Virus record (IMG/VR): IMGVR_UViG_2541048004_000003
Coordinates: 1-64,000 of that record
Strand: one strand, 5' to 3'
Length of the DNA stretch: 64,000 nucleotides
From: a virus
Taxonomy: Duplodnaviria; Caudoviricetes
Below are positions 1,542 through 54,431 of the stretch, piece after piece (position 1 is the first letter of the stretch; every line of letters starts with the position of its first letter). A program made the translations under genes and the position numbers. The notes beneath the pieces are model-generated. The model saw nothing but the letters and a program-made list of their open reading frames with translations. It was not told the DNA's origin and did no database searches.

Positions 1542-2043
1542 AATCTTTCCTTTCTTTTAGTTCGCTCAAATCAACATCAAAGTGCCGTTCGGTCTTATCT
1601 ACAAGTATGCGTTGTGCAATCTTTGCCCACTTTGCATCATTGCACGAACTTTCATTCTCTAACATCGACCAAACTTGCCAAAAGCACACCGCGCCTGCTA
1701 CAATGTTTGCCAACTTCACGGGCAATCCCTCGAATATGTAGGTTTCAATCAGAAATGCAAGTACAGTCAAGGCATACACCTTGATAAGCGTTACAAACAC
1801 TCTACCTGCATAATTAGACTTGAACTTTCCATCGTTAGCTCCGGGATATTTCTTCTTAACACGGCGTGATAACGACCAAGCCGTATAACAATCACACAGA
1901 ATGGCAATTGTGCAAATCACAATGAAAGGCAATGTCGGTTGCAGAAGCGCAACCAAAGCCCCAAATGTGCTTACACAATACTTGCCACAATGTGTGATGA
2001 ATGTTTTCAAAAGTTCATTCATAATCAAGTAAATTGAAAGCAT
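1528..2043 (-). CDS. Phage holin
   Basis: Several hydrophobic helices, SMLENESS motif and charged tail; immediately upstream of the endolysin. Confidence 0.75.
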
Positions 2044-2441
2044 TTACCGACCTTGACAATCGTAGTGTCCATTGGGTACAGCTTCAAAGGTTCAAGCCCT
2101 TGTTCCGCTCTCTTTTTATTGAGGATGGGCAAGTTCTCTTCTGCTTTCTGAATAGCTCCTATCAACACATCAGACCCGGTAAAGCAAGAACGCCTTTCGC
2201 CAATCGGTGTTCCTCCTATATCCTTTGTGTAGTAGTCGCCATCTTCATCTGCTTGCTCGTTAAATGTAGCAAGAACCACTTGCATCTGCATACGAAGATT
2301 AGACGAGTTTTTACCCGGAAACTTTGTTGGCTGAATTATTGTCTTCTCGATAAGAATACGGCGACCGAACAAGTCTTCCATATCAATCGACTTACCAACA
2401 ACAACGTCCGCTTCAATACCAAGTTCACTAAACTTTGCCAT
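2025..2441 (-). CDS. Hypothetical phage protein downstream of the DGR RT
   Basis: 138-aa ORF co-oriented and tightly packed with neighbours. Confidence 0.7.
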   Translation of the reverse strand: MAKFSELGIEADVVVGKSIDMEDLFGRRILIEKTIIQPTKFPGKNSSNLRMQMQVVLATFNEQADEDGDYYTKDIGGTPIGERRSCFTGSDVLIGAIQKAEENLPILNKKRAEQGLEPLKLYPMDTTIVKVGKCFQFT

Positions 2442-2453
2442 AAGTCTTACATT

Positions 2454-2840
2454 TTATTCTTTGATTTCGTTGTTCAACATTTCGTCCAAGTCTTCTGTGA
2501 AAAGAAGAAATTCCTTGTACTCTTCTACTGCTTGCTGGTTTTTCTTAACCCCAAGAATGTGCTTATTGTAGGCATTCACAATACCCAATTCCTCCGTTTC
2601 ATCAACAACCGAACGAATGATTGCCTTTTTCAAGGCACTTTTCGTCGGTTGCTCCCAAATACGGATTTCGCGACATTGCCAACCCACCTGCTTCTCTTCT
2701 CCGCTCTCTTCGTCTGTACCCATTTGCGGCTGAATGTTGTAACGATACAAAAATGAACCATCGTTGTCTTTTTGAATACAAGACGGCATACCTACTACCA
2801 TATCATAAAAGGCATTAGGAACGAGTGAATCTAATTTCAT
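2454..2840 (-). CDS. Hypothetical protein overlapping the 3' end of the DGR RT (not recognisably Avd)
   Basis: 128-aa ORF, 26-bp overlap with the RT stop region. Confidence 0.7.
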   Translation of the reverse strand: MKLDSLVPNAFYDMVVGMPSCIQKDNDGSFLYRYNIQPQMGTDEESGEEKQVGWQCREIRIWEQPTKSALKKAIIRSVVDETEELGIVNAYNKHILGVKKNQQAVEEYKEFLLFTEDLDEMLNNEIKE

Positions 2841-3834
2841 ACGGAATTTTGTTTTTTAGAGTTCTTACTAAATTGATTGAATCGCAATACTTACACCATC
2901 CCCACCAAGAAGCAATCTTTTGTTTATACTCCTTTTTAGTAGGCTTTTTCTTCCGTTTGTTCAGCTTTGCCACCCGGCGGCAAAGACTTTGCTTGATTGT
3001 TTTACGAAGAAGCGTGTGCGTGTGAAAGAAGACATATCCCAAGAAGTCAATACCTCTTGCTTCCACGGGGAATACTTGATAATTCCGCTTGACCTGCAAT
3101 TTCAAATTGTCGTGCAAGTAAGCCCGTATGCTATGCAGAAGACCGTGCAACACCTCCTTGTTAGGGGCAAGTATTACAATATCATCTGCATAACGCCAAT
3201 AATGCTTCACGCCCTTTTCTTCTTTCAACCAATGGTCAAAATAAGCCAAGTAGATATTGGCAAAGTATTGTGATAGATAATTACCGATAGGCACACCATT
3301 AGGCACTGAACTAATGATTTCATCAAGCAACCACAGCAAGCGTTTGTCTTTCAACTTTCGCCTTAACAACCGCTTCAATATCTCGTGGTCTATTGATGGA
3401 TAAAACTTGCGTACATCTATCTTCAAACAATAGCGTGTACCCTCGACATCATTCTTCAATGCAAACTTCACGTTTCTTGCTGCCGCGTGAATACCTCTTG
3501 TCTTGATACAAGAATATGTGTCCTTGACGAACAAGGAAACCCATATCGGTTCAAGAACATTCATTATAGCGTGATGAACGATTCTATCAGGATAATATGG
3601 CAATCGGTATATTTCACGTTGCTTTGGCTCGTATATCGTGAATACGTGGTATTTTGAAGTCTTGAACCTCTGACACTTCAAGTCCTCGTGTAGCGTCAAT
3701 AAGTTTTCTTCACGCCTTTTGTCGTGAATCTTGATACCATAAGAACCAGCCTTGCCTTTGCGCGCTCGTTCGTCTGCAAGCCGCAAGTTGTCAAGACTAA
3801 TGATGCTATCATATAAGTTTCCTATTCGCTTCAT
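2815..3834 (-). CDS. DGR reverse transcriptase
   Basis: PDRIVHHA, KIDVRKFYPSIDH, GVPIGNYLSQ (DGR-type motif 4), YADD catalytic motif, GIDFLGY; adjacent TR/VR pair. Confidence 0.97.
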   Translation of the reverse strand: MKRIGNLYDSIISLDNLRLADERARKGKAGSYGIKIHDKRREENLLTLHEDLKCQRFKTSKYHVFTIYEPKQREIYRLPYYPDRIVHHAIMNVLEPIWVSLFVKDTYSCIKTRGIHAAARNVKFALKNDVEGTRYCLKIDVRKFYPSIDHEILKRLLRRKLKDKRLLWLLDEIISSVPNGVPIGNYLSQYFANIYLAYFDHWLKEEKGVKHYWRYADDIVILAPNKEVLHGLLHSIRAYLHDNLKLQVKRNYQVFPVEARGIDFLGYVFFHTHTLLRKTIKQSLCRRVAKLNKRKKKPTKKEYKQKIASWWGWCKYCDSINLVRTLKNKIPYEIRFTRS

Positions 3835-3993
3835 TGACGTTTGCTTGTATATTTGGATTCTTCGGGGTTTTCCCTACCAAAACCGTTTTACTGATTCTAT
3901 TTTTTGCCCCTGAACTTGTCAAGACATACGATGTATATCACATCGTTTTTGTGGCAAGGTCTTCATTGCGTGAAATGTTGTTTTATACAAGAT
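3835..3993 (-). ncRNA. DGR RNA spacer between TR and RT (structured)
   Basis: Nested hairpin: ACGATGT/ACATCGT (3928-3946) inside TTGCC/GGCAA (3904-3908, 3953-3957); position where DGR cis-priming elements normally lie. Confidence 0.5.
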
Positions 3994-4103
3994 AAGCCGA
4001 GAACCGACATTCGCAAACGCAGTCGAAGCCGTCCAATTCGTATACGCGTACACGAAGCCTGCATTCGCACCATTATTCGCATTACCGCCGAACAAAAGGA
4101 CGC
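3994..4103 (-). repeat. DGR template repeat (TR)
   Basis: 110-bp near-copy of 4168-4277; all 10 differences are at TR adenines of the minus strand. Confidence 0.96.
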
Positions 4104-4152: not shown

Positions 4153-5451
4153 TTATGGGATAAAGCAAAGCCGAGAACCGACAGACGCAAACGCAGCCGA
4201 AGCCGCCCAATTCGCATACGCGTACACGAAGCCCGCAGCCGCACCATGATACGCATTACCGCCGAACAAAAGGACGCGCTCTGATACACCACTACCGGGT
4301 ATGTTAGTGTAGAAGTAATCACAGAAGTAAGTTGTTGAACCTGCACCGATATTCAAAGGCATTATTTCCCCGAACTCTCCAAGTACAAGTTCTTTTACAT
4401 ACCCCTCTTTTCGTGGTAAAACACCTCTGAACTCATAATCTGCAACGCCGTTACTATTCCATTTCTCCTTATCATTGCAAACGTAGAACTCCGAGCGTCC
4501 GCCGTCTGCATCTGATTGAATAAGACACTTTGCCCCATCTGTAATTGCCCAGCAATGTCCAAAGGGATTTTCAACACCTCTGTACGAAATAGCTTGCAGC
4601 GTTTGAGGTGCAAGGCTTCCATCATCAGATTTTGCGCAAACGTACTCAACATACCCCGACTTGTTACCAAGGCTATTTGTAATACCGCAAGGCACGGGTG
4701 GATAATACCCAAACTTATCCCAATTGCCTAAATCGGTAATTCCCTTACCAAGCCCACCTTGTCGATAGCCGTTATCGTCAAGACTTGCATTGAATGTATC
4801 TTGTGAATTGAAGTTGCAATACTCAACCGCAAAGAACCAAAACAATGCTTTTTGAACGTTATAGGTGTTGCAATTCCAATTTGCCGACCCTCTGTTTCGT
4901 GCATAAGTTCGGGCGTTTGTTGTGTTGAAGTTGGTTGCTGGTCTTCCGAGCTGTGAAGTAAACTTGTCGTCTTTTGACGCATCGTTATTTCCTCCACGAT
5001 AGTCGGCGGTTGCATTCACAACGCTTGAAAGTTTGCTTGTCGAACGTTGAATTGTAGCTTCATACGCTGAAACAAAACAACGCTCCCACCTTTGAAAGCC
5101 TGGCAACTCGTGTGTGGACATCAAAAAGCGTCGTTTGTTTCCATCTGCTTCAAATTTGACGTAACAAGTTGGAATTTCAACCATTACTTGTCCGTCTGTT
5201 CCGTCAAGTTTAGCTTCTGCCGAATTGTCCCTTTTTGTGCTATCATTTGCGTGAAGATAATAGGCGATTGTGCCGTTATCTCTAAGCACACAACGACGCA
5301 TCAATGATTGAACGGGTAATGATGCGTGAAGTTCCATTTTACCTATTCTTGTAGGCTTTGGATTTGACACCGTTACGTCCCATTCAATACCATAGAAGTA
5401 ATCATAAGGCGTTTGAGGGCGTGTTTGCCCTATTCCAAGAACGATTCCCAT
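4153..5451 (-). CDS. DGR target protein 1 (C-terminal CLec/FGE-type variable domain; probable tail adhesin)
   Basis: C-terminus LLFGGNAYHGAAAGFVYAYANWAASAAFASVGSRLCFIP contains VR1; YRGVENPFGH..GAK motif; located after the tail genes. Confidence 0.9.
   Translation of the reverse strand: MGIVLGIGQTRPQTPYDYFYGIEWDVTVSNPKPTRIGKMELHASLPVQSLMRRCVLRDNGTIAYYLHANDSTKRDNSAEAKLDGTDGQVMVEIPTCYVKFEADGNKRRFLMSTHELPGFQRWERCFVSAYEATIQRSTSKLSSVVNATADYRGGNNDASKDDKFTSQLGRPATNFNTTNARTYARNRGSANWNCNTYNVQKALFWFFAVEYCNFNSQDTFNASLDDNGYRQGGLGKGITDLGNWDKFGYYPPVPCGITNSLGNKSGYVEYVCAKSDDGSLAPQTLQAISYRGVENPFGHCWAITDGAKCLIQSDADGGRSEFYVCNDKEKWNSNGVADYEFRGVLPRKEGYVKELVLGEFGEIMPLNIGAGSTTYFCDYFYTNIPGSGVSERVLLFGGNAYHGAAAGFVYAYANWAASAAFASVGSRLCFIP
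4168..4277 (-). repeat. DGR variable repeat 1 (VR1)
   Basis: Differs from TR at TR positions 4010, 4011, 4023, 4032, 4041, 4060, 4064, 4065, 4074, 4077, all T on plus (A on coding strand). Confidence 0.96.
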
Positions 5452-35245: not shown

Positions 35246-35983
35246 TCAAATACCCTTTCTCCTGTCTTTCCCCTTTATCTCGAAATAGTTGCACATTTCG
35301 ACAAGTCTTGACTGCACACGGTCGCCATACTTCTCTTTGAGAATTTCGCTTGAAATCCTTAAATTAGACGTTATCATTGTGAGTTCATCGGTTCTGTCGC
35401 CGCGATACTCTAAGAGTTGTTGTAAAACATTCAAGCGATTCCCCATATAAAGGGTTTCTTTCGGCTCTTGCCCGAAATCCTGAATACCGATAATAGACAT
35501 TTTCTTGAATCTTACAATTTCTCCCCTTTCGGAAAATTCTCCACAAATCTCATCGGCTCTGTTGATATTCCAAAACAAAGGACGTTGTGCATTGTCGTCA
35601 GAAAATTTGATTTGAAAACCCCAAGCACGAGCATAAGCAAGCATTACTTCAAGACACCAAGATTTACCCGACCCTGTGTTACCTGCTATGTAAATACCAC
35701 GCTTGATGTCGCCTTGTTGCTCTTCTCCTGTGATGGCATTTAATGCTTTCATCGTTGTATCTCCGTGACACCACTTGATGAAGTTTTCATAAGCAAATCG
35801 GTTTTCATCGTCTATCACAAACTTTGGGTTTCGGATTTTCCCTATCGCTTCAACGACTTTCAAGGCGTGTTCAACTTCGTAGTTATCGTAAACGTAACGG
35901 TCAAACCCCGAAAAATAGCCACGCTCCTGAATGAACTGCAAGACCTTTGAAATGTCTGGGTTATATGTCTTCTTTACTTCCAT
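35246..35983 (-). CDS. DnaC/IstB-like ATPase (helicase loader)
   Basis: GNTGSGKS, IQDFG, TSNL, DRVQSRL; follows the initiator gene. Confidence 0.8.
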   Translation of the reverse strand: MEVKKTYNPDISKVLQFIQERGYFSGFDRYVYDNYEVEHALKVVEAIGKIRNPKFVIDDENRFAYENFIKWCHGDTTMKALNAITGEEQQGDIKRGIYIAGNTGSGKSWCLEVMLAYARAWGFQIKFSDDNAQRPLFWNINRADEICGEFSERGEIVRFKKMSIIGIQDFGQEPKETLYMGNRLNVLQQLLEYRGDRTDELTMITSNLRISSEILKEKYGDRVQSRLVEMCNYFEIKGKDRRKGI

Positions 35984-36690
35984 TCGTCATTGATGTTATT
36001 GTTACTTGATACAGCTTGCTTGCCGTTATTTACCTTGTCGCTCTTGTGCCAATTTCTGACGGCTGCTTGCCAATCTTTCATTTTGTTTTTTCCGACCATC
36101 CAGCCTTTCGATGTGTAGAAGTCAATGAATCTTTCTGCATCAAAAAAGGCATAACCTTTTTCTTCAACATAAACCTTAACTTCTTCAAGTGTAGGTGGGC
36201 AAAACCGCTTGGCGGCTTTTGCTCCTATACTCTCTACTTCGATAGAAGTAGATTCTTTTATTTCCTTTTCTTTCCTTTCCTTTGGATATACATTGCATTG
36301 CTCTTGTTGTGCATTTGCATTGGAATTGCATTGCTCTTGTTGTGTTTCCTTTGATTTCCAGCGAGTTTCTGCCGCTTTCTTTCTTCTTTCTGAAATCTCC
36401 TTGCGACGATTCAAACGGGCAAGAACCGAACTTGACCAAAAGAAAGTGCCATCATTTTGAAACAAATCGAAGTCATTCACAACGCTTTCTACAACCTTGC
36501 AATCAATGTGCAATGCAAATGCAATGCTTTTGCACGCCTTAAAAGGAAGTTTACCACCTTGCTCGTATATCTGTTCGATAACACACCAAAAGACACCGAT
36601 ACCAGCCACTCCGTGTTCAATCAACACATCTTGCAACTTTGGGTCGTTGCGTGCGTTGTAGTCGTGTTGAAAGTAGAACGTATCTTTCAT
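35974..36690 (-). CDS. Phage replication initiator (DUF4373-like)
   Basis: YFQHDYNARNDPKL N-terminus; PPTLEEV..FIDFY..GW..KDWQAAVRNW C-terminus; internal DNA repeats. Confidence 0.8.
   Translation of the reverse strand: MKDTFYFQHDYNARNDPKLQDVLIEHGVAGIGVFWCVIEQIYEQGGKLPFKACKSIAFALHIDCKVVESVVNDFDLFQNDGTFFWSSSVLARLNRRKEISERRKKAAETRWKSKETQQEQCNSNANAQQEQCNVYPKERKEKEIKESTSIEVESIGAKAAKRFCPPTLEEVKVYVEEKGYAFFDAERFIDFYTSKGWMVGKNKMKDWQAAVRNWHKSDKVNNGKQAVSSNNNINDEWK
36293..36344. repeat. Iteron-like direct repeats (putative replication origin)
   Basis: TTGCATTGCTCTTGTTGTG at 36293-36311 and 36326-36344, inside the initiator gene. Confidence 0.65.
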
Positions 36691-36751
36691 TGCCTTGTGA
36701 TTTTAACCCCACCTTGACACGCTTTGGCACGAGTCAAGGCGGGGATTTGTA

Positions 36752-37492
36752 TTAAACTTCTATCAATGCGATGTTTGGTGCAACTTCCTTGATTGCTACA
36801 ATCTGTTCATCAATAACTTTGTTCCTGATGTCCTCCAAGGCTTGATTAGCTCCGGGCGAAAGAAGCAAGAAAGAAACTTCACGTCCGCTGATTTGCGCGA
36901 AAGTTTCAACCTCCAGCGTTTCGCTTTGCATACCCTTGAAGATAGGCATTGCCAAAGTGAATGATGCGGGCAAGTTTGAATTGACAACTTGTGTGAAGTT
37001 ATCTTTTCTATCGCCATTCTCCTTAACCGAGCGTTCAAGCGTGTTATTGACAGTCGCCGTGAAGTTCATAAGTGTTGTTACAAGCTCCATATTCGTCTTT
37101 CTGTCCGTGAAGAATGCACGGTTCATTTTGAAGAACATACCAAGTTCGGTTGGTGTCCACACCTTTCCGTTGTTGATGCCAAATTCAATGAACTTGGGGT
37201 TGAAGTCCAGCGTGCCAACAATACTGCCTGAATTGTAGTAATCATCTTCATTGATTACGAGCGACAAGGTTACGTTATCACGGTCAATCAAGATGTGTGA
37301 ACGCTCTTGCTCGAATTGCCCAGTACCAACACGCTTTTTCAAATACTCGAAAGGTGTTCCGATAACCCCTTTGATGTCTGTTTTAATGGGGGCTTTGGGG
37401 TCAAGTTCTTTAACCGCTCCGCCCTCTCTGATAATCAATTCTGCCTTGGTTACATTTTCACCAAAAACAACTTGCAATTTTTCTGATTCCAT
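36752..37492 (-). CDS. Hypothetical phage protein
   Basis: 246-aa ORF in the early operon. Confidence 0.7.
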   Translation of the reverse strand: MESEKLQVVFGENVTKAELIIREGGAVKELDPKAPIKTDIKGVIGTPFEYLKKRVGTGQFEQERSHILIDRDNVTLSLVINEDDYYNSGSIVGTLDFNPKFIEFGINNGKVWTPTELGMFFKMNRAFFTDRKTNMELVTTLMNFTATVNNTLERSVKENGDRKDNFTQVVNSNLPASFTLAMPIFKGMQSETLEVETFAQISGREVSFLLLSPGANQALEDIRNKVIDEQIVAIKEVAPNIALIEV

Positions 37493-37518
37493 TTTCTTTG
37501 GATTTTGAATGTTGAACT

Positions 37519-37950
37519 TTAATCGTTAGTACCTGTTTTGCGTGCCATCGCAAATATCGTAGGTTGCATTTCATCTGCTGTTGCTGGACGCTCTTCTATT
37601 AAGTCGCCATCTGCATTGTAGTAACCCGTTTGCTTGGCTTCTTGGTCGGTGAACTTGTAACAGATTTCACGCACATATTCAGCTTTCGACTTGATATTTG
37701 AAACCATTTGGCTTCTCGCTTCTTTAAGCGGTTTCAATCGTGCTTTATATTCCGCTTGAACCTGTTTCATTTCTGCTTCAATTTCGGCAATCTCAATTGA
37801 AGTATTGGCAAGTTCTTCTTTGTGTCCCTGCAATTGCTCCGGGGTATATGGCTTCATATAGCCTTTTTCCTCCACCGTGTCGCAATTGTCTTTCAAGAAT
37901 GCTTCACGTTGAACACGGTTTGCATACTCTTTACCAATTGTTCTTTCCAT
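37519..37950 (-). CDS. Hypothetical coiled-coil protein
   Basis: 143-aa ORF in the early operon. Confidence 0.7.
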   Translation of the reverse strand: MERTIGKEYANRVQREAFLKDNCDTVEEKGYMKPYTPEQLQGHKEELANTSIEIAEIEAEMKQVQAEYKARLKPLKEARSQMVSNIKSKAEYVREICYKFTDQEAKQTGYYNADGDLIEERPATADEMQPTIFAMARKTGTND

Positions 37951-37974
37951 ATCGTTTTGTTTTATAGTGATACA

Positions 37975-38529
37975 CTACTTGTCAAGCAACAAGAAATCAT
38001 TATACAGGCTTTCAAATTTCTTTCCGAAATCGAATGCACGTTCACGAGTTGCAAAGCAAAGCCGAGAACCGACATCCGCAAACGCAGGCGAAGCCGTCCA
38101 ATACGTAGCCGCGTACACGAAGCCCGCAGCATCCTTGTTGTACTCAAACCAAGGGAAATACTTGTATTGGTTTTCGTTAGAGAAGTCTGGCACAAATCCA
38201 TCTTCTTTATTCCACGCTTCTGCTATTGTGAACAACTTTGATAATGCCAGCAAAGCCTTTTCGTGATGCTTGTTTACACCACAAATTGTCATCAACGGTT
38301 CATCAGATAATCCGAGATACTTCTTTGCATCTTCATAGCTGGCAATCTCTTGTACCTCTTCTTCTTGAACATCGAAGTCAAAGATGGACAAGAAGCCATC
38401 TTCATCTGAACAAACATCGTCGTTCTTCTCTGTGATGTACTCAACGAGCTTTTCACTCGCTTGGTTCTTTGTGTCGAACTTTCCCAAGACTTCGTTTGTC
38501 GTCTTGTTTCTTACTACATACTTTTTCAT
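37975..38529 (-). CDS. DGR target protein 2 (remote, in the early operon)
   Basis: Contains AAGFVYAATYWTASPAFADVGSRLCF encoded by a TR-like repeat; likely start MKKYVV at 38529. Confidence 0.85.
   Translation of the reverse strand: MKKYVVRNKTTNEVLGKFDTKNQASEKLVEYITEKNDDVCSDEDGFLSIFDFDVQEEEVQEIASYEDAKKYLGLSDEPLMTICGVNKHHEKALLALSKLFTIAEAWNKEDGFVPDFSNENQYKYFPWFEYNKDAAGFVYAATYWTASPAFADVGSRLCFATRERAFDFGKKFESLYNDFLLLDK
38059..38130 (-). repeat. DGR variable repeat 2 (VR2)
   Basis: 72-bp match to TR 3994-4065 with 8 mismatches, 7 at TR adenines; shares the IMH end GGTTCTCGGCTTTGCTTT with VR1. Confidence 0.88.
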
Positions 38530-38542
38530 TGTTATTTTGTTG

Positions 38543-39286
38543 TTAAAAAGGTGATTTATCAAATTCAATTATCATACCCTTGTCGGCAATATGAACGTTC
38601 TTTCCCGTTAGCTCCTTAATACCTTTTAGAAATTCGCTTGCATTACTATTGCCCGGCGAAAGGTGTATCAACACAATGTTGTTCACCTTTGATAAGTCAT
38701 TAGCAACAAGTATTTCCTTGCAAGTTTCGTAGCTCAAATGGCTTCTTATTGTTCGGTCGCGTTGCGGTTTGGCAATTCTTCCTGCTTCAACATTTTCTTC
38801 TAAAATATCAAGTCGATAGTTGCATTCAAGCAATATGTTTGAAAGACCATCGAAGCGATACTTCAAATAGTATGTATCAGTAGCAAAAAGAACCGTCCCC
38901 ATCTCCTTGTGATGAATAAGATACCCGAAAGGTTCGGCGGCATCGTGTTGAACTGAAAAACCTTGAATGGTAAACCCTCCGAGCTGATAAGGCTTGAACT
39001 CTTCTGTACGCCTTACAAGTGCGTTACTTCTGATTTTCAAAGCCTCTGCCGTCCCATCAGACATATAGCAAGGAATACGAGCATCAAGCACCTTTTGGAC
39101 GTGCTTTGCGTGGTCGCCGTGTTCGTGCGATATAACACACCCCCTTATTCTGCTAATGTCAAAATCAACCGACTTTTGAATGCTCCTGTAAGGCATTCCG
39201 CATTCAATCAACAATGCTTCATTGCCATTGTCGAATAAATAGCCGTTACCAGCCGAACTGCTTCCGAGTATCTTTAATTGCATCAC
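38543..39286 (-). CDS. MBL-fold metallo-hydrolase (nuclease-like)
   Basis: GSSSAGN, SHEHGDH, HDAAEP, TDT, ECNY, HLS motifs. Confidence 0.9.
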   Translation of the reverse strand: MMQLKILGSSSAGNGYLFDNGNEALLIECGMPYRSIQKSVDFDISRIRGCVISHEHGDHAKHVQKVLDARIPCYMSDGTAEALKIRSNALVRRTEEFKPYQLGGFTIQGFSVQHDAAEPFGYLIHHKEMGTVLFATDTYYLKYRFDGLSNILLECNYRLDILEENVEAGRIAKPQRDRTIRSHLSYETCKEILVANDLSKVNNIVLIHLSPGNSNASEFLKGIKELTGKNVHIADKGMIIEFDKSPF

Positions 39287-39295
39287 ATTTTAGAT

Positions 39296-40201
39296 TTAGA
39301 AGCCGGGAAAGTTTGCTTCACCTTGTTGTGGCGATTCCGCTTGCTCCTGATTGACGATTTCCCCTGTTTCTGTATCAACGGTTGTCTTTGTTGATTTGTC
39401 GCCGTTAGAAGCCCCCAAATCAATTGCAATCACCTTTTGGTTTGCATTGTCTGACTTCTCTTGTGCAACCTCTTCTTTTACATCCTTGACTTCTTCAAAA
39501 TCTGTGTAAATATCTTGTTGCTCCTCAACGGTACGCATACCCATAGACAATTCAGGTGCGTATGCACTTGTCCAAAACGATGCTGCACGATACATCAACA
39601 TCTGCTTTGCCATCGTCTGCCATTTGCTGCCGTTCTTCGTGTACCACCCCTCCTGAATAGCAAGACGAAGTGAAACGGGGGAACTTTCAAGCACTTGGTC
39701 TGAACCCTTTGCGGTTGTGTACGCGACGCATTCAATGTCCATTATCTTCTTTCCGTCAAATTGCTTGACAACGGGCTTTTTTGAACGTGTAGCATTATCC
39801 CAAACGTAGTCGGTATAATCAACCATACCCAGCATTCCCTTTTCTGTGAAGCGGTATTGCAAGGGGTTGAATCGACCACAAGTGTTTACCGTTGCGACAA
39901 GGAACTTTGAAGACCAAGATGGCTTGCCGTAAATCGGAACCATATTCTGCATAACCATCAACGGACTTGCACCGATACGTTGTGCAATCTCAATTGCAAT
40001 CATACAATTGGATATTGCTTTTTCGATAGGATTCTTGTCGCTTGCCTTGTACATATCAGGCACAAGTTCAGACGAAGCGAACATCTTGCAAACACGTTGC
40101 ATTGTTTCAAACTGCAAGGGGTCAAAGAAATTGACTACTGCTTGCGCTTGGGTTGGTTGCACTGCAACCATACCCGGATTTGTTTTAACTAATTCATTCA
40201 T
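39296..40201 (-). CDS. RecT-like single-strand annealing protein
   Basis: NCMIAIEIA..PLMVMQN, GSKWQTM..QML.YRAA; acidic tail; likely start MNELVK at 40201. Confidence 0.75.
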   Translation of the reverse strand: MNELVKTNPGMVAVQPTQAQAVVNFFDPLQFETMQRVCKMFASSELVPDMYKASDKNPIEKAISNCMIAIEIAQRIGASPLMVMQNMVPIYGKPSWSSKFLVATVNTCGRFNPLQYRFTEKGMLGMVDYTDYVWDNATRSKKPVVKQFDGKKIMDIECVAYTTAKGSDQVLESSPVSLRLAIQEGWYTKNGSKWQTMAKQMLMYRAASFWTSAYAPELSMGMRTVEEQQDIYTDFEEVKDVKEEVAQEKSDNANQKVIAIDLGASNGDKSTKTTVDTETGEIVNQEQAESPQQGEANFPGF

Positions 40202-40208
40202 TGTTGTA

Positions 40209-40454
40209 TTACTTTGATTGGTTGATATACGAAAGGAATGTTTGACGGGCTTCTTCAAGGGCTGGTATTGCTTCCTTGACGTGTGAAGAAACCGACACAA
40301 CGGGTATTCCGTCTATTGCGATGTAGATACCGCTTTTGAACTCTCGAAGCTGCACACGTTCTTCAACCATTCTTGCGGTGTACTCCTTGGCGGCTTTTAC
40401 CTTATCCGCCTTGCGTGCATTGAACCACGCAATAACTTTCTTAATGTACTTCAT
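40209..40454 (-). CDS. Hypothetical protein
   Basis: 81-aa ORF in the early operon. Confidence 0.55.
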   Translation of the reverse strand: MKYIKKVIAWFNARKADKVKAAKEYTARMVEERVQLREFKSGIYIAIDGIPVVSVSSHVKEAIPALEEARQTFLSYINQSK

Positions 40455-40467
40455 TCTGTTTGATGTA

Positions 40468-42438
40468 TTACTTAATAACTAATTGTTTGTCATTCGTTAC
40501 AACGAGGTTGATTACTTGACTTTGCGTGTAGATAATCTGATTCACACTTTCGCGATTGTCGATGAAGATTGGGGCGGTGATTCCGTAGAAATTGCAAAGT
40601 GCATTGATAATATCAAGACCAGCATTTACTTGACCTGCCGTGTTTGCGACCGTGAAAGGAACTCCATTTACAAGCGGAATGCACGTTTCAACGGGATTTT
40701 CTTTATTGGCATCTTCAATCGTGTATTCAAACAGACGGAATGTAACCATTGTGAATAGACCGTTGATGCGTTTTTCGCACTCGTCAATCTTTGCTTTTGT
40801 GAACTGCTGAACGGTATATTCTTCACGCTCTGCATCGGCGATTTGCTGGGCAAGGTCTTTTCCCTTTGCTTCAAGGTCGGCGATTTGCTTTTTGAACTGC
40901 TCAATACGTTCACGGTCTGCAAGTTTTGCTTTGACTTCATCACGATTGCGTGAAAGTTCCTTTTTACGCTCTTGATACTCGCTTGTGTCCACCTTTTCTG
41001 TTCCTGCTTCAAGGGTTGCTTCAAGGTCGGCGATTTGCTTTGTAAGGTCTGAATACTCCTTGATGTTATCGGGGATAATCTCCACTTGTTTAACCTCTGA
41101 AAGTGTTGCAAGCTGTTCTTCCAAAGCGTGAAGTTCTTCTTCCTTTACCTTTGCACCCGAAATGGCGTTATTTTTGTCCTGCTCAACCTCTGAAATGCTC
41201 TTATTGACACATTCAATTTCTGCCTTGTAAGCCTTTCCCTTTGACGTGATTTCTTCAAGGATTCCTTGCTTGTGTTTGTTGAAGTGTTCCCTTGCTTCTT
41301 CTTTCATAGATTCGGGCAACTCTTGACCACAACAACGACACGTTGTTTCACCATTGAATTGTACTTCGTTTTCTTTGTACCACTCCGAACGTAGAGTATC
41401 AGACTTTGAAGTTAAGTCTTGTATCTGCTTATGAAGTTTTTCAAGCTGTGTATTCGCTGAATTTTCATCTTGAACATAGCCGTGAATCTCCCTCTTAACT
41501 ACGTTTATTCTCTCTTGAAGTTCGCGGCGATTAGAGTTGGCATTGAACGCTTCTTCTTTTGCCTTACTTTGAGCATCGAACAGTACTTGCTGGCGTTGGC
41601 TCTTCAATGCGTTAATCTTGCTTTGACGCTCTTGCACCGCTTCGTATTGTTGTCTTACACGCTCCGTTGCATCGTTCATAGCCTTGTCCACCTTTTCGAT
41701 TTCTGCTTCAATGCGTGCAACCTCTTCTTCAAGGGTTGCAAAATCCGTCATTTCGGGCATCAACCGTTGTGTTTGGTCAATTCGTGGCTGAATCTCCGCA
41801 AGGTCTGCTTTAAGACGTTTCTTTCGTGCCGCAAGCTCGCTTTTGAAGTCCGAAAAACTCTTGCCACTAATTTTATCAAGAAGTACCGAAAATTCAGGCT
41901 TTAAATTTGCAATCTCTTGGTCTGTTACAGTGCCTGCAAGCTGGAAGAGTTGTTCACGTTGATTCTTCCAAGGCATAGAAGCAAAGAATAATGGGTTTGT
42001 TACCATCTTAAACACGCTATCATCAATGATTGTGTTTACTCGCTTCTGATATTCGGTTACGTTTACCGGGGTTTCATTCCAATAACACTCCGTTTTGTTC
42101 CCCCTGAACACTTGTTCAACTTGACCACGTGGTTTAACCCAATCTTCCACAAATGCACGTCGCAACGTGATGTCTTCACCATCTACGTTCAAGACGCCGA
42201 TAACTTCACATTCGGTTTTCATAAGTGGTTGCCCGTCCACAACCGTCTTAATGTTGAAATCCTTGCGGTCTTCTTTGTCTTTGCCGAAAAGAAGCCACAT
42301 AAAGGCATCAAAGTGCCTGCTTTTTCCTAACCCGTTCCCCCCTGAAATTGTCGTGCTGATAGGGTCAAATTGGGTTGTTCTACTACGTTCACCCCTCCAA
42401 TTTGTTAGGGTCAAACTTTTGATAATAACCTTTTTCAT
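40468..42438 (-). CDS. Rad50/SbcC-like coiled-coil ATPase
   Basis: GGNGLGKS Walker A, long coiled coil with CRCC zinc-hook-like motif, PIFIDN Walker B. Confidence 0.85.
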   Translation of the reverse strand: MKKVIIKSLTLTNWRGERSRTTQFDPISTTISGGNGLGKSRHFDAFMWLLFGKDKEDRKDFNIKTVVDGQPLMKTECEVIGVLNVDGEDITLRRAFVEDWVKPRGQVEQVFRGNKTECYWNETPVNVTEYQKRVNTIIDDSVFKMVTNPLFFASMPWKNQREQLFQLAGTVTDQEIANLKPEFSVLLDKISGKSFSDFKSELAARKKRLKADLAEIQPRIDQTQRLMPEMTDFATLEEEVARIEAEIEKVDKAMNDATERVRQQYEAVQERQSKINALKSQRQQVLFDAQSKAKEEAFNANSNRRELQERINVVKREIHGYVQDENSANTQLEKLHKQIQDLTSKSDTLRSEWYKENEVQFNGETTCRCCGQELPESMKEEAREHFNKHKQGILEEITSKGKAYKAEIECVNKSISEVEQDKNNAISGAKVKEEELHALEEQLATLSEVKQVEIIPDNIKEYSDLTKQIADLEATLEAGTEKVDTSEYQERKKELSRNRDEVKAKLADRERIEQFKKQIADLEAKGKDLAQQIADAEREEYTVQQFTKAKIDECEKRINGLFTMVTFRLFEYTIEDANKENPVETCIPLVNGVPFTVANTAGQVNAGLDIINALCNFYGITAPIFIDNRESVNQIIYTQSQVINLVVTNDKQLVIK

Positions 42439-45237: not shown

Positions 45238-46506
45238 ATGTTTATCAAACGTATAGTAAAATTCATTCTGCATAAACGAAAGCCGGGCGAAACAACGTCC
45301 CTTGCTATCCGTATGCGTGTAACCCTAAAAGGTGAACGCCCTTTTGATTTTCCATTAGGGCGAAAGGTTGATTTGAACAAATGGAATGCAGATACGGAAC
45401 GAGTGATTGAGGGAACAAGTGAAGCCGCCGAAATCAATCGTTCAATTGAAGAATACAAAACACAAATCAATGAAGTTTTCGCAAGGTTTGAACTGCTCGA
45501 AAAGCGAGTTCCGACACCACAAGAAGTAAAAGACTTGTTTAATGATATGGTAGGCAAGGCTTCCTTGATTGATGAAAATGGCAAACTCGATTTTTGGAAT
45601 GTGTTTGATGTATTCACCGAACAAGTAGGGGAAAAGAACCTGTGGACGGATTCGACATTTCAAAAGTTCAGAACATTACGACACCACCTTAAATCATTTG
45701 CGCCAACATTATCTTTCCCCTCTTTGACGGAAGAAAAGTTGCAAGACCTTGTTGCATATTACTACAAAAAGGACTTTCGCAATACAACAATTTCAAAGCA
45801 ACTATCGTTCTTGCGTTGGTTCTTGCGTTGGGCGGCTCAAAAAGGGTATTACAATGGAGATTTGCACGAAACATTCAAGCCTAAACTAAAAGGAATTTCC
45901 GTTGATTCAAGGGAAATCATTTATCTTTCACAAGATGAATTGAAGCAACTTCAAGATTTCCACTTCCAACCGATGCAAGAAGCACTTGAACGTGTCCGGG
46001 ACGTGTTCTTGTTTCAATGCTTCACGGGGCTTAGATATTCAGATGTTGCCAAATTGAAGCGTTCTGATGTGAAGAAGGGTGTTGTTCACGTTGTAACAAA
46101 AAAGACCGTTGATGGGCTTAGAATTGAGCTGAACAAGCATTCACAAGCAATCATTGACAAGTATATTGATTGCAATTTCCCCGGTGATAAGGTCTTGCCC
46201 GTGATTTCAAATGAAAAAATGAATGCGCACCTTAAAACCCTTGGTCAAGTTGTCGGTCTTGACGAGCCAACAAGGATTGTTTACTTCAAGGGCAATAAGC
46301 GATATGAAGAAGTATATCCGAAATGGTATCTTCTTACTACACACGTTGCACGTCGTACATTCGTAGTAACAGCGTTGCAATTGGGAATCCCCGTTGAAGT
46401 TATTATGCGTTGGACGGGACATTCAAACTTTGAAGCGATGAAGCCTTATGCAAAGATAGTGGACGAACTGAAAGAAAAATCAATGTCAAAGTTCGATGCT
46501 CTTTGA
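45238..46506 (+). CDS. int: Tyrosine integrase (Bacteroidales arm-binding/SAM-like type)
   Basis: FTGLRYSD (R), THVARRTF (HxxR), TGH and MKPY (Y); N-terminal IRMRVT arm-binding region; adjacent to attR. Confidence 0.95.
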   Translation: MFIKRIVKFILHKRKPGETTSLAIRMRVTLKGERPFDFPLGRKVDLNKWNADTERVIEGTSEAAEINRSIEEYKTQINEVFARFELLEKRVPTPQEVKDLFNDMVGKASLIDENGKLDFWNVFDVFTEQVGEKNLWTDSTFQKFRTLRHHLKSFAPTLSFPSLTEEKLQDLVAYYYKKDFRNTTISKQLSFLRWFLRWAAQKGYYNGDLHETFKPKLKGISVDSREIIYLSQDELKQLQDFHFQPMQEALERVRDVFLFQCFTGLRYSDVAKLKRSDVKKGVVHVVTKKTVDGLRIELNKHSQAIIDKYIDCNFPGDKVLPVISNEKMNAHLKTLGQVVGLDEPTRIVYFKGNKRYEEVYPKWYLLTTHVARRTFVVTALQLGIPVEVIMRWTGHSNFEAMKPYAKIVDELKEKSMSKFDAL

Positions 46507-47094: not shown

Positions 47095-48153
47095 TCAACT
47101 CCGTATTCTTACTTGCCTAATAGGTACGTACAGGCTGTTTTTATACAGTATCCCATCATCCATGATGTGTGAATCGCTGCCCGCTATGGCGCAGTATATG
47201 CTTTCCCAAGCTTCCAATAAAAAACGATGCCCCTGCTGATTGAATACAACCTCTTTGTTTCCGTTGCTCGCATTGACAATAAGTACAGAATTATCAATGT
47301 ATCCATCGCATACGACTACTTTATACGTCGCATCTCCCCTAAGCCGAAACAAGTTAATGTGTTGCCCGTGATCTCCATAAAAATGCCAATTTCTGTTTAT
47401 CTTCCCGGTATATATTGGGACTGTCATATGAGCATAATATTCAAGCCGACCGGGAGTATTCGGCCATATCTCTATTGCGGAGTGCACCGCCCTTCCGAAT
47501 TCCCCCCTGCACCATATATCTGAAGCGTAGAACCGGGGTAACCGACCATCTTTGGTTCCCTGATGGAATAAGTCTCCATCCGATACCCACATCTTGCCGT
47601 CACTTCCGAATTCGAGAGCTGCTAATGTCTCGCCTGCTTTATTGACACACTTAAGCTTTTTGAATGAACCGGAAACGCCCGTTAAGTCTCCGGTATAATC
47701 CGCATTACCACCGTTGAACTTAAACTTGCCTCCGCAGAGATGCCCGTCTCCGTTCTCATTAATCAAAGCGTTGAACCCGCCCGGAGCATCAGGGTTCGGA
47801 CCAGCTTTGAGAACGTTTGCTTCGATGATGGTAGCTTTCAGCGTGTCGATAAATGCCTTGTCGGAGATAAGGGTCTTGATTATAGCCTGATGTATCGCTA
47901 CCTTAGTCAATGTCGAGATAGGACGCCAATACTCCTTGTTCGTCACCTCTATACCCTCTGGCACATCCTTAATCGCTTGGTAGTACTGGAAGTTATCCTG
48001 CTCATCCTTGACGAACACCGTAGCGCCGAACATGGAGTTACCCACATACGATTGCGTCTTGTCATGCGGAACGGGAATAGACGTCATTGGCGTAGGCTTC
48101 ACATCCTCCGTATCTGATATTGTTATTGCTTTCGTCTGTATCATTGTATCCAC
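47095..48153 (-). CDS. Terminal tail fibre/receptor-binding-like protein
   Basis: Last gene of the tail operon; Gly-rich beta segments. Confidence 0.55.
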   Translation of the reverse strand: MDTMIQTKAITISDTEDVKPTPMTSIPVPHDKTQSYVGNSMFGATVFVKDEQDNFQYYQAIKDVPEGIEVTNKEYWRPISTLTKVAIHQAIIKTLISDKAFIDTLKATIIEANVLKAGPNPDAPGGFNALINENGDGHLCGGKFKFNGGNADYTGDLTGVSGSFKKLKCVNKAGETLAALEFGSDGKMWVSDGDLFHQGTKDGRLPRFYASDIWCRGEFGRAVHSAIEIWPNTPGRLEYYAHMTVPIYTGKINRNWHFYGDHGQHINLFRLRGDATYKVVVCDGYIDNSVLIVNASNGNKEVVFNQQGHRFLLEAWESIYCAIAGSDSHIMDDGILYKNSLYVPIRQVRIRS

Positions 48154-51100
48154 TGCTTAATGTTCGTATCATCGTACTTGAACTCTACATTATCATCCAC
48201 GCCGTCTGCATACTCGGTTCCCACGTTCAGCGTGTCGGTATTGCTTGCCAATACCTGACCGTTCACCAGCCACTTAAACGCTCCGCCATTGTTCATCGCT
48301 ACCGCCGTGATGTCTTTCAGGCCGTAGGTGATTCTGGCTTTGAGCTGAACATAGTCCTTGCCTCCTATCCTTACTCCGTTCACGACAGAGCGCACAGGGC
48401 GGGGCATGTCGAGTATCTGCCCTGATTCGTCCGCCTGTTCCCAGCTCGTATGGAACCTGCCACGAACGGTTATCTCGACATCTAATGAGGATTCGCCAGC
48501 TTCTCCCGTTTCGCCTTTCAAGTCTTCCACATGCGGGATGTATGCGGTGGGGATTTCGGGCTCGCCCTCGAGGACTTGCTCTATCTTTATGTCCTCAATC
48601 TTAGCGTTTAGCCATCCCGAACTGGTCGCGTAATCTGTGCACCACGCATGAATAAAGTATACTTCGCTCATTAATTCAGCCTTAGTCACTTTAATCGGAA
48701 GAGTTACATAGATATCTTGAGGTTTCATCTCATACATCACTCGAACGGTTCGAAACGGTGTTGCTTTATCTTTTTTCCATAAAATAAAATTAGCGTATCT
48801 ATGAAAGGTCACTCCATTCTGTTCAGCCTGTGTTATGCTTATCTTGAAGCTCATAATCAATCCGGCTAACTTGTCATCGAATTGCCCGAAGCGAAAAACC
48901 TCTATCTTACCTGTATCACCCGAATACTTGTTTGTTTTTCCCGGCAGTTCATTAATGTTCCATGTAAAGTTGGCAGGTAACATAGAGCGCCTAAGGATAT
49001 TCGGTCTCACCGCTACTCCGTCCACCTTAATGCCCGTATCCTTATAGCCCCTCTTTTCCCCTTGTACCTGTGCGGTCGGGTTCTCTGCGTCATACTCCCA
49101 CCACGTTTTCGTACGTTGTGAGATGTAAGGCGAGTTTCCGTTATCACCTTTCGAGGAAAGTCCGCTGTCGACGAGCGTCTTTTGTTCATCGCTCCACAGC
49201 TTCCAGTTCTTCGTAACAGGATCGATCTCCGGCATCTTGATTGCTTTTATTGCGTTCAAACGGGATTCGATATCTTCGGGGGCTTCCGTCCAGTCCAGAG
49301 ATGTTTTGTTGCCACGAACAAGCTTTATCCAAGAAATAGACGATTCGCCGGTGCCGGAATTCGGAGCCGCGTACACGCTAAGCTTAGTGTTATTCCCAAC
49401 ATCTGCACCAGATTTTGTCTTCCATTTGAAAGAAACACATGCGATTCCGCCGACAAGTTTATCTTTTATAACCTTGGCAAGCTCAAAGATCCCACCTGAA
49501 TTATATAATAAGAAGCTCTGCTTTCCTTCGCTTAGATTCCCGGCTATGACGACAGTAGCCGTCTCGCCAGCTTCGAGATTCCTTCCCGCCTCTGATATAT
49601 CATACTCTTTCAGCAAGTAATTCGAATTGCTGACAGGAACATTAGACTTTAACAGCAGATTGCGCTCGCCCAGCAGAATGTCATCCGCAGCGGCTTGCTT
49701 AATCTTCTTGTCAATCGCTTGTCTGCACTTATCTATGCAGTCCGTCAACGATTTGACGTCAGCCACATATATCTGATACTTCGCATTGTAATCCGCCCTT
49801 TCCTGCTCGGTTATCTTGTTGTCCGCGATAGCGGTTGCTATTGACTCTTGCAGCTTGTCGATGCTGCCCGTACTTGCTGCGAGAAGCTTCTTCGACTTCG
49901 TAGTCAACTCCGACTTCAAGTCAGCTGGCAAGAACTCGTTGTCGAGGATGTAGTTGACGTTACTTTGCAATTGTGCCTGCTCGATGTCGAGCTTCTTAGA
50001 CAATTCGCTCAAGTCCCGGCGCTCGGCTTCGGTGATGATGCTATCACGGAAAGCATCCGCTACTCCGTTCTCTACACCGTTCATCGCATCTGTCAAGTCC
50101 TTGATGCTGTTTTTCGCAGTATCGAACTGCTGTGAAAGCTTCTGAAACTCTTTCTTCAACGCCTCGAAGTCCGCAGCATTCACATACGGATTTATCCAGT
50201 CGACGTCTGCAAACGCCGTGTTGTCACGGATAGCCCACAGCCGGGTATTCTCGTCTTTCAGCCAGATATCCCCTTTCTTGTAGCCGTTAATCGGCTTCTC
50301 TGTATGGATAGTCAGCTTCTCCCTGCCCATCTTAGCAATGTCCGCAAGGGCTTTCGTCAGAGCTGTGTTCTGAATTGCCTCCCATTGATACGATGCAGGG
50401 TCGGAAGCCGATGCGCCGGGACGCAATACGAAGAGATACGATACCGTTGTATCCAAGTCGGTATAGGTGTCTCCCACATGCGTACCGTATACGTCTGCAA
50501 TCATATTAGGCTGTGTGATGGGCTGTCCCTCTGCGTCATACAGCCAAGTGTTCGTAGAGCTTCCCTGCATGGTAGGCGCGCCCTTGCCCTGATAGGCGTA
50601 TACCGCCTTATCTACTTGCTTCTGCAAGCCCTGAATGAGCTTCAACAGAGCGTCCGTGCTCTCCGATGTGGCGAACTCCTGCTCAATCTTGGTTCCGTCG
50701 GGGTTCGTGATGATTATCTTTCCCGCTTCTACGGTAATCACCGGAGAGGGTGCGTAGTTACTCCAAAGGGCTACCGTGTTGAGTGTGTATTTAGGCTTAA
50801 AGACGGACATTTTCTTGGCTGCCGATGCCACAGGGTCGAGGATGTTCGAACGCCCGTATATCGCTATCCAGCAGAACCGTTTCTCTTCCGTAGTGGATAC
50901 GGGGTTTTCATCCCAGCCCGCCTGTCTTAAGCTGTTGTTCAGTTCGTCTATCGTTCCCCAGCCCGCTTGCTTTGTCGGGGCTTGCGGAGCTACACTGTTA
51001 GTTGTCAATATGAAGTACTTCACAGCATTAGCGTCGTCCTCCGGGACAATGCGTACACCTGAATCTACCCATACCTGTTGTGTGTTATCGAATACCGCCA

Positions 51101-51179
51101 AGTTGCCATTCGGAAGCAGGCGGGGTGGTTGACCGTCCATGCGGTCGGGAATCGTTGTGATTGTCGATTTTGTTGCCAT
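48141..51179 (-). CDS. Tail fibre protein
   Basis: 1012 aa mosaic: coiled-coil shaft, GERNLL and VRPNILRRS carbohydrate-binding-like modules, short collagen-like KGETGEAGES. Confidence 0.7.
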   Translation of the reverse strand: MATKSTITTIPDRMDGQPPRLLPNGNLAVFDNTQQVWVDSGVRIVPEDDANAVKYFILTTNSVAPQAPTKQAGWGTIDELNNSLRQAGWDENPVSTTEEKRFCWIAIYGRSNILDPVASAAKKMSVFKPKYTLNTVALWSNYAPSPVITVEAGKIIITNPDGTKIEQEFATSESTDALLKLIQGLQKQVDKAVYAYQGKGAPTMQGSSTNTWLYDAEGQPITQPNMIADVYGTHVGDTYTDLDTTVSYLFVLRPGASASDPASYQWEAIQNTALTKALADIAKMGREKLTIHTEKPINGYKKGDIWLKDENTRLWAIRDNTAFADVDWINPYVNAADFEALKKEFQKLSQQFDTAKNSIKDLTDAMNGVENGVADAFRDSIITEAERRDLSELSKKLDIEQAQLQSNVNYILDNEFLPADLKSELTTKSKKLLAASTGSIDKLQESIATAIADNKITEQERADYNAKYQIYVADVKSLTDCIDKCRQAIDKKIKQAAADDILLGERNLLLKSNVPVSNSNYLLKEYDISEAGRNLEAGETATVVIAGNLSEGKQSFLLYNSGGIFELAKVIKDKLVGGIACVSFKWKTKSGADVGNNTKLSVYAAPNSGTGESSISWIKLVRGNKTSLDWTEAPEDIESRLNAIKAIKMPEIDPVTKNWKLWSDEQKTLVDSGLSSKGDNGNSPYISQRTKTWWEYDAENPTAQVQGEKRGYKDTGIKVDGVAVRPNILRRSMLPANFTWNINELPGKTNKYSGDTGKIEVFRFGQFDDKLAGLIMSFKISITQAEQNGVTFHRYANFILWKKDKATPFRTVRVMYEMKPQDIYVTLPIKVTKAELMSEVYFIHAWCTDYATSSGWLNAKIEDIKIEQVLEGEPEIPTAYIPHVEDLKGETGEAGESSLDVEITVRGRFHTSWEQADESGQILDMPRPVRSVVNGVRIGGKDYVQLKARITYGLKDITAVAMNNGGAFKWLVNGQVLASNTDTLNVGTEYADGVDDNVEFKYDDTNIKQWIQ

Positions 51180-51180
51180 A

Positions 51181-53964: not shown

Positions 53965-53985
53965 AAAAAACTATTTAAAGGCTAT

Positions 53986-54429
53986 TTAAAGTTGCGGATT
54001 CGGCTCCCGGAACTTGAGTTTCATGCGGCATACGACCTCTCCGTCCTCCGTACCGGTCAACGGCTCGTATGCCGTACACTCTTGATAGTAGACTCTATAA
54101 GTACGCCCGGTCAGAGAGGTTTCCAGCGTCAGCCAACCGCTGCTCAGCAATTGCATCACGGCCGTGAAGTTTGCCGAAAACCGTTCGGGGGTGTCGGCCA
54201 CGATTGCCGCATACAGTTGGAAGTCACGGGGCTCCCGTTTAGGTCCCGGGAGTGTATCGGGAAGTTTTTCCCCGTTTTCCTCCCGGAAGGATACGGCTGT
54301 GTAAGGTTTCATCTTGGACGGCTTCAACAATTCCGAGAGATTAAAGTAATCTCCCTGATTCTTCTCCGTCAGATACATGCCATACTCCGTATACATGTCT
54401 TTCCCGTTTATCTTCCATTCTCCTTCCAT
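53986..54429 (-). CDS. Distal tail-like protein
   Basis: WKINGKD, FREENGE, KLKFREPNP; follows the tape measure gene. Confidence 0.65.
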   Translation of the reverse strand: MEGEWKINGKDMYTEYGMYLTEKNQGDYFNLSELLKPSKMKPYTAVSFREENGEKLPDTLPGPKREPRDFQLYAAIVADTPERFSANFTAVMQLLSSGWLTLETSLTGRTYRVYYQECTAYEPLTGTEDGEVVCRMKLKFREPNPQL

Positions 54430-54431
54430 AC

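Follow-up and report, generated by a model that had tools for sequence, protein, structure and literature searches.

A prophage DGR with a single template repeat and two targets: a tail protein and a small protein of a recombination/replication operon

To our knowledge, nearly all that has been learned about the DGRs of phages concerns receptor-binding tail proteins. Targets of another kind have nevertheless been described: Benler et al. (2021; PMC8008677) reported a second, non-structural DGR target in Quimbyvirus, and Dahlman et al. (2025; PMC12629997) found a distal VR of this kind close to genes of counter-defence in four induced prophage species. In the Roseburia phage Shimadzu two VR sites are both mutated, as determined by read mapping (Cornuault et al., bioRxiv 10.1101/575076). 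The targets in the 'Bacuni' phages F1-F4 of Bacteroides uniformis carry DUF1566/Fib_succ_major domains, are interpreted as proteins of the fimbrial tip or as adhesin-like, and occur together with Avd (PMC8143477).

Both the arrangement and the protein family described below are already published for Bacteroides phages. The initial annotation of the locus had cited non-structural remote targets reported in some gut Bacteroidales phages, and this precedent is correct: the distal target of LoVEphage (OY731433; gene AUSP0023_00079, here gene 79) in fact belongs to the same family, phrog_11581 (E=8e-47), as the protein analysed by us. LoVEphage gene 79 is located near genes of methyltransferases and a tRNA ligase and bears a VR of 108-117 nt matching the two repeats beside the LoVEphage RT. 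As the genes around it agree with those described for ORF 80/84 of Quimbyvirus, the two are probably identical.

The window, i.e. the whole stretch of 64,000 nt that was analysed, is the first part of a 78-kb IMG/VR record. It contains one DGR with two targets, as had been proposed: VR1 lies in a tail protein and VR2 in a protein of 184 aa (P0001), and both correspond to a single template repeat (TR). A search of the genome against itself found three copies of the repeat only (TR, VR1 and VR2) across the 78-kb record, with E=7.8e-24 for the VR2 match. All genes of the system (the RT, both targets and the neighbours in question) are located on the minus strand. The features are collected in the table.

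Table. Features of the DGR system and of the surroundings of its second target (positions in the window)
Feature	Position	Strand	Remarks
128-aa and 138-aa ORFs behind the RT	2025..2840	-	candidate accessory genes; the 128-aa ORF overlaps the RT end
DGR reverse transcriptase (RT), 339 aa	2815..3834	-	Pfam RVT_1, E=1.2e-17
TR-type (IMH*-like) 3' end	3988-4009	-	...GGCTTATCTTG on the coding strand
Template repeat (TR)	3994..4103	-	160 nt upstream of the RT start
VR1 target gene, 432-aa tail protein	4153..5451	-	phrog_5302 'tail protein', E=6.5e-122
VR1, 110 nt, C-terminus of the tail protein	4168..4277	-	10/10 mismatches with TR at TR adenines (hypergeometric P=9e-10)
DnaC-like loader	35246-35983	-	
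Lin1244/DnaD-like replication initiator	35974-36690	-	
DUF2303, downstream of the VR2 gene	36752-37492	-	
phrog_12688, downstream of the VR2 gene	37519-37950	-	
VR2 target gene, 184 aa (P0001)	37975..38529	-	phrog_11581 (unknown function), hmmscan E=8e-23
VR-type 3' end (IMH-like) of VR2	38053..38074	-	identical to the VR1 end, 4162-4183
VR2, 72 nt	38059..38130	-	counterpart of the TR 3' part only; codes for residues 134-157
MBL-fold metal-dependent hydrolase	38543..39286	-	Pfam Lactamase_B_2; phrog_392, E=6e-78
RecT-like single-strand annealing protein	39296..40300	-	phrog_561, E=1.7e-58
SMC/Rad50-like ATPase	40468..42438	-	Pfam AAA_23, MukB, SMC_N
Tyrosine integrase, right end of the DGR prophage	45238..46506	+	phrog_1, E=1.6e-33; Pfam Phage_integrase, Arm-DNA-bind_5

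The RT translation contains both IGNYLSQ, which corresponds to the DGR-type [I/L]GxxxSQ motif, and YADD. Its relatives show 62-78% identity in IMG/VR phages and at most 92% in the protein collection. Pfam, PHROG and NCBIfam yielded no Avd match. The two ORFs behind the RT, of which the 128-aa one is phrog_11557 (unknown function), have no match in Pfam or NCBIfam; both are kept behind the RT in two related loci (L149 and L150), and from this position they could be DGR accessory factors. In the 160-nt spacer between TR and the RT gene a hairpin was observed (3928-3946), with a perfect stem of 7 bp and a loop of 5 nt, which may be part of the DGR RNA. DNA folding 3' of VR1, VR2 and TR revealed weak, non-significant imperfect hairpins only (z from -0.5 to -1.9), and no GC hairpin resembling that of BPP-1.

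VR2 and TR 3994-4065 can be aligned without gaps, with 8 mismatches in 72 nt, exactly as listed in the initial annotation. Seven of these fall on TR adenines (4011, 4023, 4038, 4043, 4060, 4064 and 4065), and the eighth lies opposite a T at TR 4044. With 12 A in this 72-nt part of TR, seven of eight mismatches at A correspond to a hypergeometric P=4e-6. The 3' ends of VR1 and VR2 were likewise confirmed to be identical over 22 nt (by chance, no match of this kind would be expected), and the TR copy of this segment differs from them at three positions; read on the coding strand, VR1 and VR2 terminate in ...GGCTTTGCTTT, whereas TR terminates in ...GGCTTATCTTG. The IMH-like 3' end of the VRs, which has a putative role in homing, is thus distinct from the IMH*-like end of TR. 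VR2 is internal to its ORF, since 25 residues follow GSRLCF in the 184-aa product.

The full length of TR (~110 nt) is not spanned by VR2. In a BLASTP alignment with LoVEphage gene 79 (28% identity over residues 26-181, E=7e-14), P0001 lacks a segment of 25 residues ('...LVLWGGS...') just before the VR. It is the TR 5' part that would encode this segment, and because the subfamily of P0001 does not possess it, only the 3' 72 nt of TR are matched. In the tested relatives of 171-206 aa the VR is 74-76 nt long, and the 72-nt VR is a subfamily variant that still falls within phrog_11581.

Variation of VR2 was followed among homologues of the 184-aa protein (1,956 at E<=0.001) and in populations. 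In the 44 closest homologues, 67-95% identical to the protein of the window, the five columns with the highest entropy (2.9-3.5 bits) are those of residues 141, 143, 148, 150 and 152, all within VR2, and the sets of residues found at the hypervariable columns (N, H, D, S, Y, A, G, T and others) are those expected of AAT codons under adenine-only change. Contigs spanning positions 37600-38900 (1.3 kb) were obtained from four runs of four studies, and were full-length in three of them (X1, X2 and X4). These full-length contigs are at least 99% identical to the window and contain 11-13 differences each, nearly all inside VR2: in X1 all 11 fall within 38075-38114, and in the other runs two to three lie outside VR2. 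In run X6 the assembly has single-path flanks and forks at VR2, giving two alleles with depths of 50 and 30; each of them contains VR2-specific flanking bases, and therefore they represent neither TR nor VR1. Of the 14 VR2 positions that vary, 13 correspond to adenines in the usual TR of the family.

Adenine-only divergence was also confirmed in homologous phages. In three IMG/VR phages of ~50 kb in which both genes are present, with the TR beside the RT as a reference and VRs of 74-76 nt, the mismatches between TR and VR2 fell on TR adenines in 12 of 12 (L008/L078), 11 of 11 (L027/L077) and 8 of 8 cases (L016/L102). The comparison of flank and VR identity in ENA relatives was uninformative, as the flanks are mosaic. 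Identical VR2 alleles recur across samples (P0008 on 8 contigs, P0019 on 12), therefore their turnover is not fast relative to their spread. The close allele P0008 (L134-L137) is 6 nt shorter than TR and encodes a protein of 181 aa, so the length of the VR varies as well.

The template itself appears to be eroded. The nearest TRs available for comparison were those of L150 (2486-2611; RT 89% identical), L149 and 40 IMG/VR loci (L054-L093), together with a TR piece of run X2. Codons 141, 147, 148 and 150 read TAT, TCG, ACT and TTT in the TR of the window and AAT, ACG, AAT and AAT in the nearest TRs, and in the VR2-homologous part five adenines have been lost relative to the latter. This part has 12 adenines in the window versus 18 in the nearest relative, and consequently the coding capacity of TR is reduced. 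Between the TRs of the window and of L150 there are 11 differences, eight of which are A in L150 and another base in the window. TR adenines also vary among close relatives. Based on these comparisons, TR itself seems to be undergoing change directed at adenines, or conversion from VR to TR. When genome contigs and metagenome contigs were scanned with exact 30-mers of the flank upstream of TR, 0 matches were obtained.

The derived TR bases are found again in both targets: all five are present in VR1 and four in VR2, and the chance of sharing four of them is ~(1/4)^4 per VR. It follows that the eroded TR was the source of both VRs, or that sequence was exchanged between it and them. The one derived base that VR2 lacks is at the first position of codon 141, i.e. 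the mismatch at 4044, where the VR2 base is underivable from the present TR. As this position is an adenine in every related TR, it is the TR of the window, and not VR2, that is the odd one. When VR2 is compared with the adenine-rich TR of the L150 type, 13 of 13 mismatches are located at adenines, and for this reason the VR2 base opposite 4044 is probably older than the last change in TR.

The position of the VR2 gene between an MBL/RecT/Rad50 block and replication genes, proposed in the initial annotation, was borne out by the Pfam and PHROG matches of its neighbours. The order is SMC/Rad50-like, RecT-like, MBL, target, phrog_12688, DUF2303, replication initiator and DnaC-like loader, and the genes downstream of the target have the same order in IMG/VR phages of ~50 kb. 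The MBL gene ends 13 nt upstream of the target gene, in the same operon. Its product may be no more than a nuclease that acts together with RecT; relatives of this hydrolase (L134-L146) gave weak or faint matches to Pfam Anti-Pycsar_Apyc1, and the protein of the window matched Lactamase_B and Lactamase_B_2 only. The MBL-target core is common to the window and 14 IMG/VR loci. In other phages the neighbours differ, and therefore no conserved partner emerges. A copy of the motif TTTTATAGTGATA is located at 37959-37972, directly after the stop codon of the VR2 gene and just before the start of the next gene.

A second set of tail genes is found after the integrase gene (47095-64000), with a tape measure gene at 54432-57836, and the 78-kb 'provirus' looks like two tandem prophages, with the DGR, VR1 and VR2 all in the first. 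As the integrase ends this prophage and the tail genes of the second one begin at 47 kb, the RT and VR2 belong to one phage of ~46 kb. The distance of 34 kb previously given between the RT and VR2 holds for the integrated prophage; in the circular phage genome it does not, because, given the location of the integrase, the two would be ~12 kb apart.

The 184-aa protein is composed of an N-domain (residues 1-60) and a conserved C-domain (residues 61-184), in which the VR is located. The N-domain is small and acidic, with a beta-beta-alpha-beta order; in other subfamilies unrelated N-termini take its place. P0001 has no match in Pfam, PADLOC or NCBIfam, and no Pfam family was assigned to any of 65 members. 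Megablast of positions 36000-41000 against GenBank phages gave no match, and tblastn against the same phages detected LoVEphage and phage BI-TP1 only, at 28-29% identity. A search with the family profile retrieved 4,543 representatives (50% identity clusters) at E<=0.001. Besides proteins of the P0001 type, the family includes C-domain-only forms of 120-130 aa and fused two-domain proteins. Many phages encode two tandem paralogues, or two-domain fusions, with VR-like loops (L036-L050; P0244, P0256 and P0261). In one such tandem pair (2896-3354 and 3366-3743 of L036), the near-identical locus L037 differs only in the loop of the upstream paralogue. On the other hand, among the best 147 representatives of the family roughly one in three does not contain the canonical GSRL, and several of these have ordinary loop residues; the scaffold therefore exists also without DGR targeting.

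The description of the target as CLec-like, which was part of the initial annotation, was not supported. AlphaFold models (pLDDT 81 for the whole protein; pLDDT 88 and pTM 0.84 for the C-domain) predict a pair of helices, then a beta-hairpin and a loop, and another pair of helices at the C-terminus, with the VR forming the second strand of the hairpin and the loop, and matched neither a CLec nor any other PDB structure with Foldseek or VIA-align. For the C-domain model, VIA-align against 48,161 chains reached a Z of 3.8 at most, and Foldseek returned nothing at E<=0.001; a PDB profile search with the family alignment gave no match either. The N-domain of the whole-protein model produced weak rows (Z <=4.4; among them small anti-CRISPR, ClpS and antitoxin chains), which were dismissed as not significant. 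In the ESM Atlas unnamed viral clusters only were found, and no structure for the 184-aa protein, and in BFVD the model matched only uncharacterised phage proteins, some of crAss-like viruses (best TM 0.78, probability 1.0).

The tail protein gave no match in a search against the PDB, and the profile of its C-terminal domain had a sole match there, the VR segment of Mtd of BPP-1, which is weak and non-significant (E=1.6). When the phrog_11581 profile was compared with this C-terminal domain by hhalign, 32 columns aligned, all of them in the VR-encoded segment. As judged from these profiles, homology to a CLec-type target does not appear to extend beyond the VR, with no Pfam signature of FGE-sulfatase or DUF1566, and the CLec likeness of the 184-aa protein appears confined to the VR segment that both targets share.

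Taken together, VR2 is very probably a genuine second homing target of the single DGR of the prophage, and the variation in populations and relatives, together with the derived TR bases in VR2, indicates that it was rewritten recently. According to the proposed mechanism, the RT would copy the TR RNA with adenine-specific errors, and the cDNA would replace a stretch of DNA bearing the VR-type 3' end (...GGCTTTGCTTT) and homology upstream of it. Two stretches would be eligible: the 110-nt VR1 of the tail protein and the 72-nt VR2 of the phrog_11581 protein. Rewriting of the latter would randomise about eight codons (residues 134, 139, 141-143, 145, 148 and 152), which in the model are placed on one strand of the beta-hairpin and in the loop after it, and the target would be made from the recombination/replication operon and not from the virion modules.

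It could be argued that VR2 was written in an ancestor and is a working target no longer, its variation being inherited allelic diversity. The occurrence of the same allele on 8-12 contigs from different samples is consistent with such a history, as are the adenine depletion of TR and the one VR2 mismatch that is incompatible with the present TR. However, VR2 contains four bases specific to the derived TR of the window, and must have been rewritten after that TR arose. Furthermore, VR2 alleles differ between phages whose flanks are at least 99% identical, two alleles are present in one run, and neither the RT nor the VR-type 3' end is disrupted. The initial annotation had named a VR2 that is invariant, or whose variation is not biased to TR adenines, as the mark of a frozen relic; VR2 proved to be variable among near-identical phages, with adenine-biased mismatches, and we consider this explanation very unlikely. 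Rather unlikely, in our opinion, is that VR2 is indeed rewritten, though with no selection for binding, the site being kept by the homing signals in a surface loop that tolerates change. In Shimadzu the second VR has many alleles, none of them dominant, which its authors interpreted as weaker selection than on VR1 (bioRxiv 10.1101/575076), and the family members that lack GSRL and have ordinary loop residues are consistent with this reading too. On the other hand, the combination of target and VR has been kept across several groups of phages with diverged TRs, and tandem paralogues with VR-like loops, in one case differing in the loop only, are hard to square with neutrality.

A role in the virion has to be considered as well. 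If the 184-aa protein were a component of the virion or of adsorption (a tail accessory or an injected protein) encoded away from the structural genes, VR2 would serve host range in the same way as VR1, and the VR-encoded segment is common to both proteins, which sample the same sequence space. Nevertheless, the genomic context, i.e. the short distance behind the MBL gene and the recombination/replication operon, syntenic in many phages, marks the target as non-structural, in agreement with the initial annotation. There is no match to a structural PHROG and, by eye, no hydrophobic signal-like stretch at the N-terminus, the homology to the tail protein ends at the VR, and the family is found in non-structural regions of other phages too, e.g. 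LoVEphage. We regard a virion component as highly improbable.

As to the function of this second homing target, we tentatively suggest that the 184-aa protein might be an intracellular (cytoplasmic) binding module, the variable face of which tracks a fast-changing ligand, such as a protein of host defence or of a rival phage. A more far-reaching version, which is speculative and in itself unlikely, would see in the conserved 120-residue C-domain a DGR scaffold of a third kind, besides CLec and Ig, that gained a CLec-type VR fragment by retrohoming. It would act as a programmable intracellular binder, or 'intrabody', against fast-evolving host-defence or rival-phage proteins, with the swapped N-domains serving as effectors or adaptors.

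That small non-virion targets form a large and conserved family would imply that targeted hypermutation serves phages inside the cell as well. What the present locus adds to the published cases is minor: a clean example of a truncated VR, a confident model without a solved counterpart, and an eroded TR common to both VRs, which constitutes internal evidence of one template for both sites. From this locus alone the question of function is no more testable than with the published isolates, LoVEphage and Shimadzu.

Compared with the Bordetella phage BPP-1 (mtd-avd-TR-brt), the window shares the adenine mutagenesis between TR and VR and an IMH that differs from IMH*, and the VR1 segment weakly resembles the VR of Mtd. 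In BPP-1, however, the only target is a structural CLec protein encoded next to the cassette, an Avd is present, and the VR is followed by a GC-rich hairpin; none of these three features was found for VR2. The 'Bacuni' phages F1-F4 resemble the window in that they have a pair of DGR targets, of which one lies far from the RT cassette, and differ in the DUF1566/Fib_succ_major domains of these targets and in the presence of Avd. Closer to our case is Shimadzu, in which one DGR serves both a tail gene and another gene (orf43/44) without an assigned function. Its host is a Firmicute, and its activity was measured directly, whereas that of the window is inferred from populations.

The closest counterpart is LoVEphage. 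The window differs from it in the shorter VR (72 nt as opposed to 108-117 nt) and the missing 25-residue segment, in the recombination/replication genes that neighbour the target in place of methyltransferases and tRNA ligase, and in the RT, which is a single ORF in the window and frameshifted in LoVEphage/Quimbyvirus. Both are temperate Bacteroidales phages in which one TR is common to a tail protein and a distal target in a non-structural location, and in both distal targets the VR lies in the C-terminal third of the protein and is followed by a helical tail of ~25 residues.
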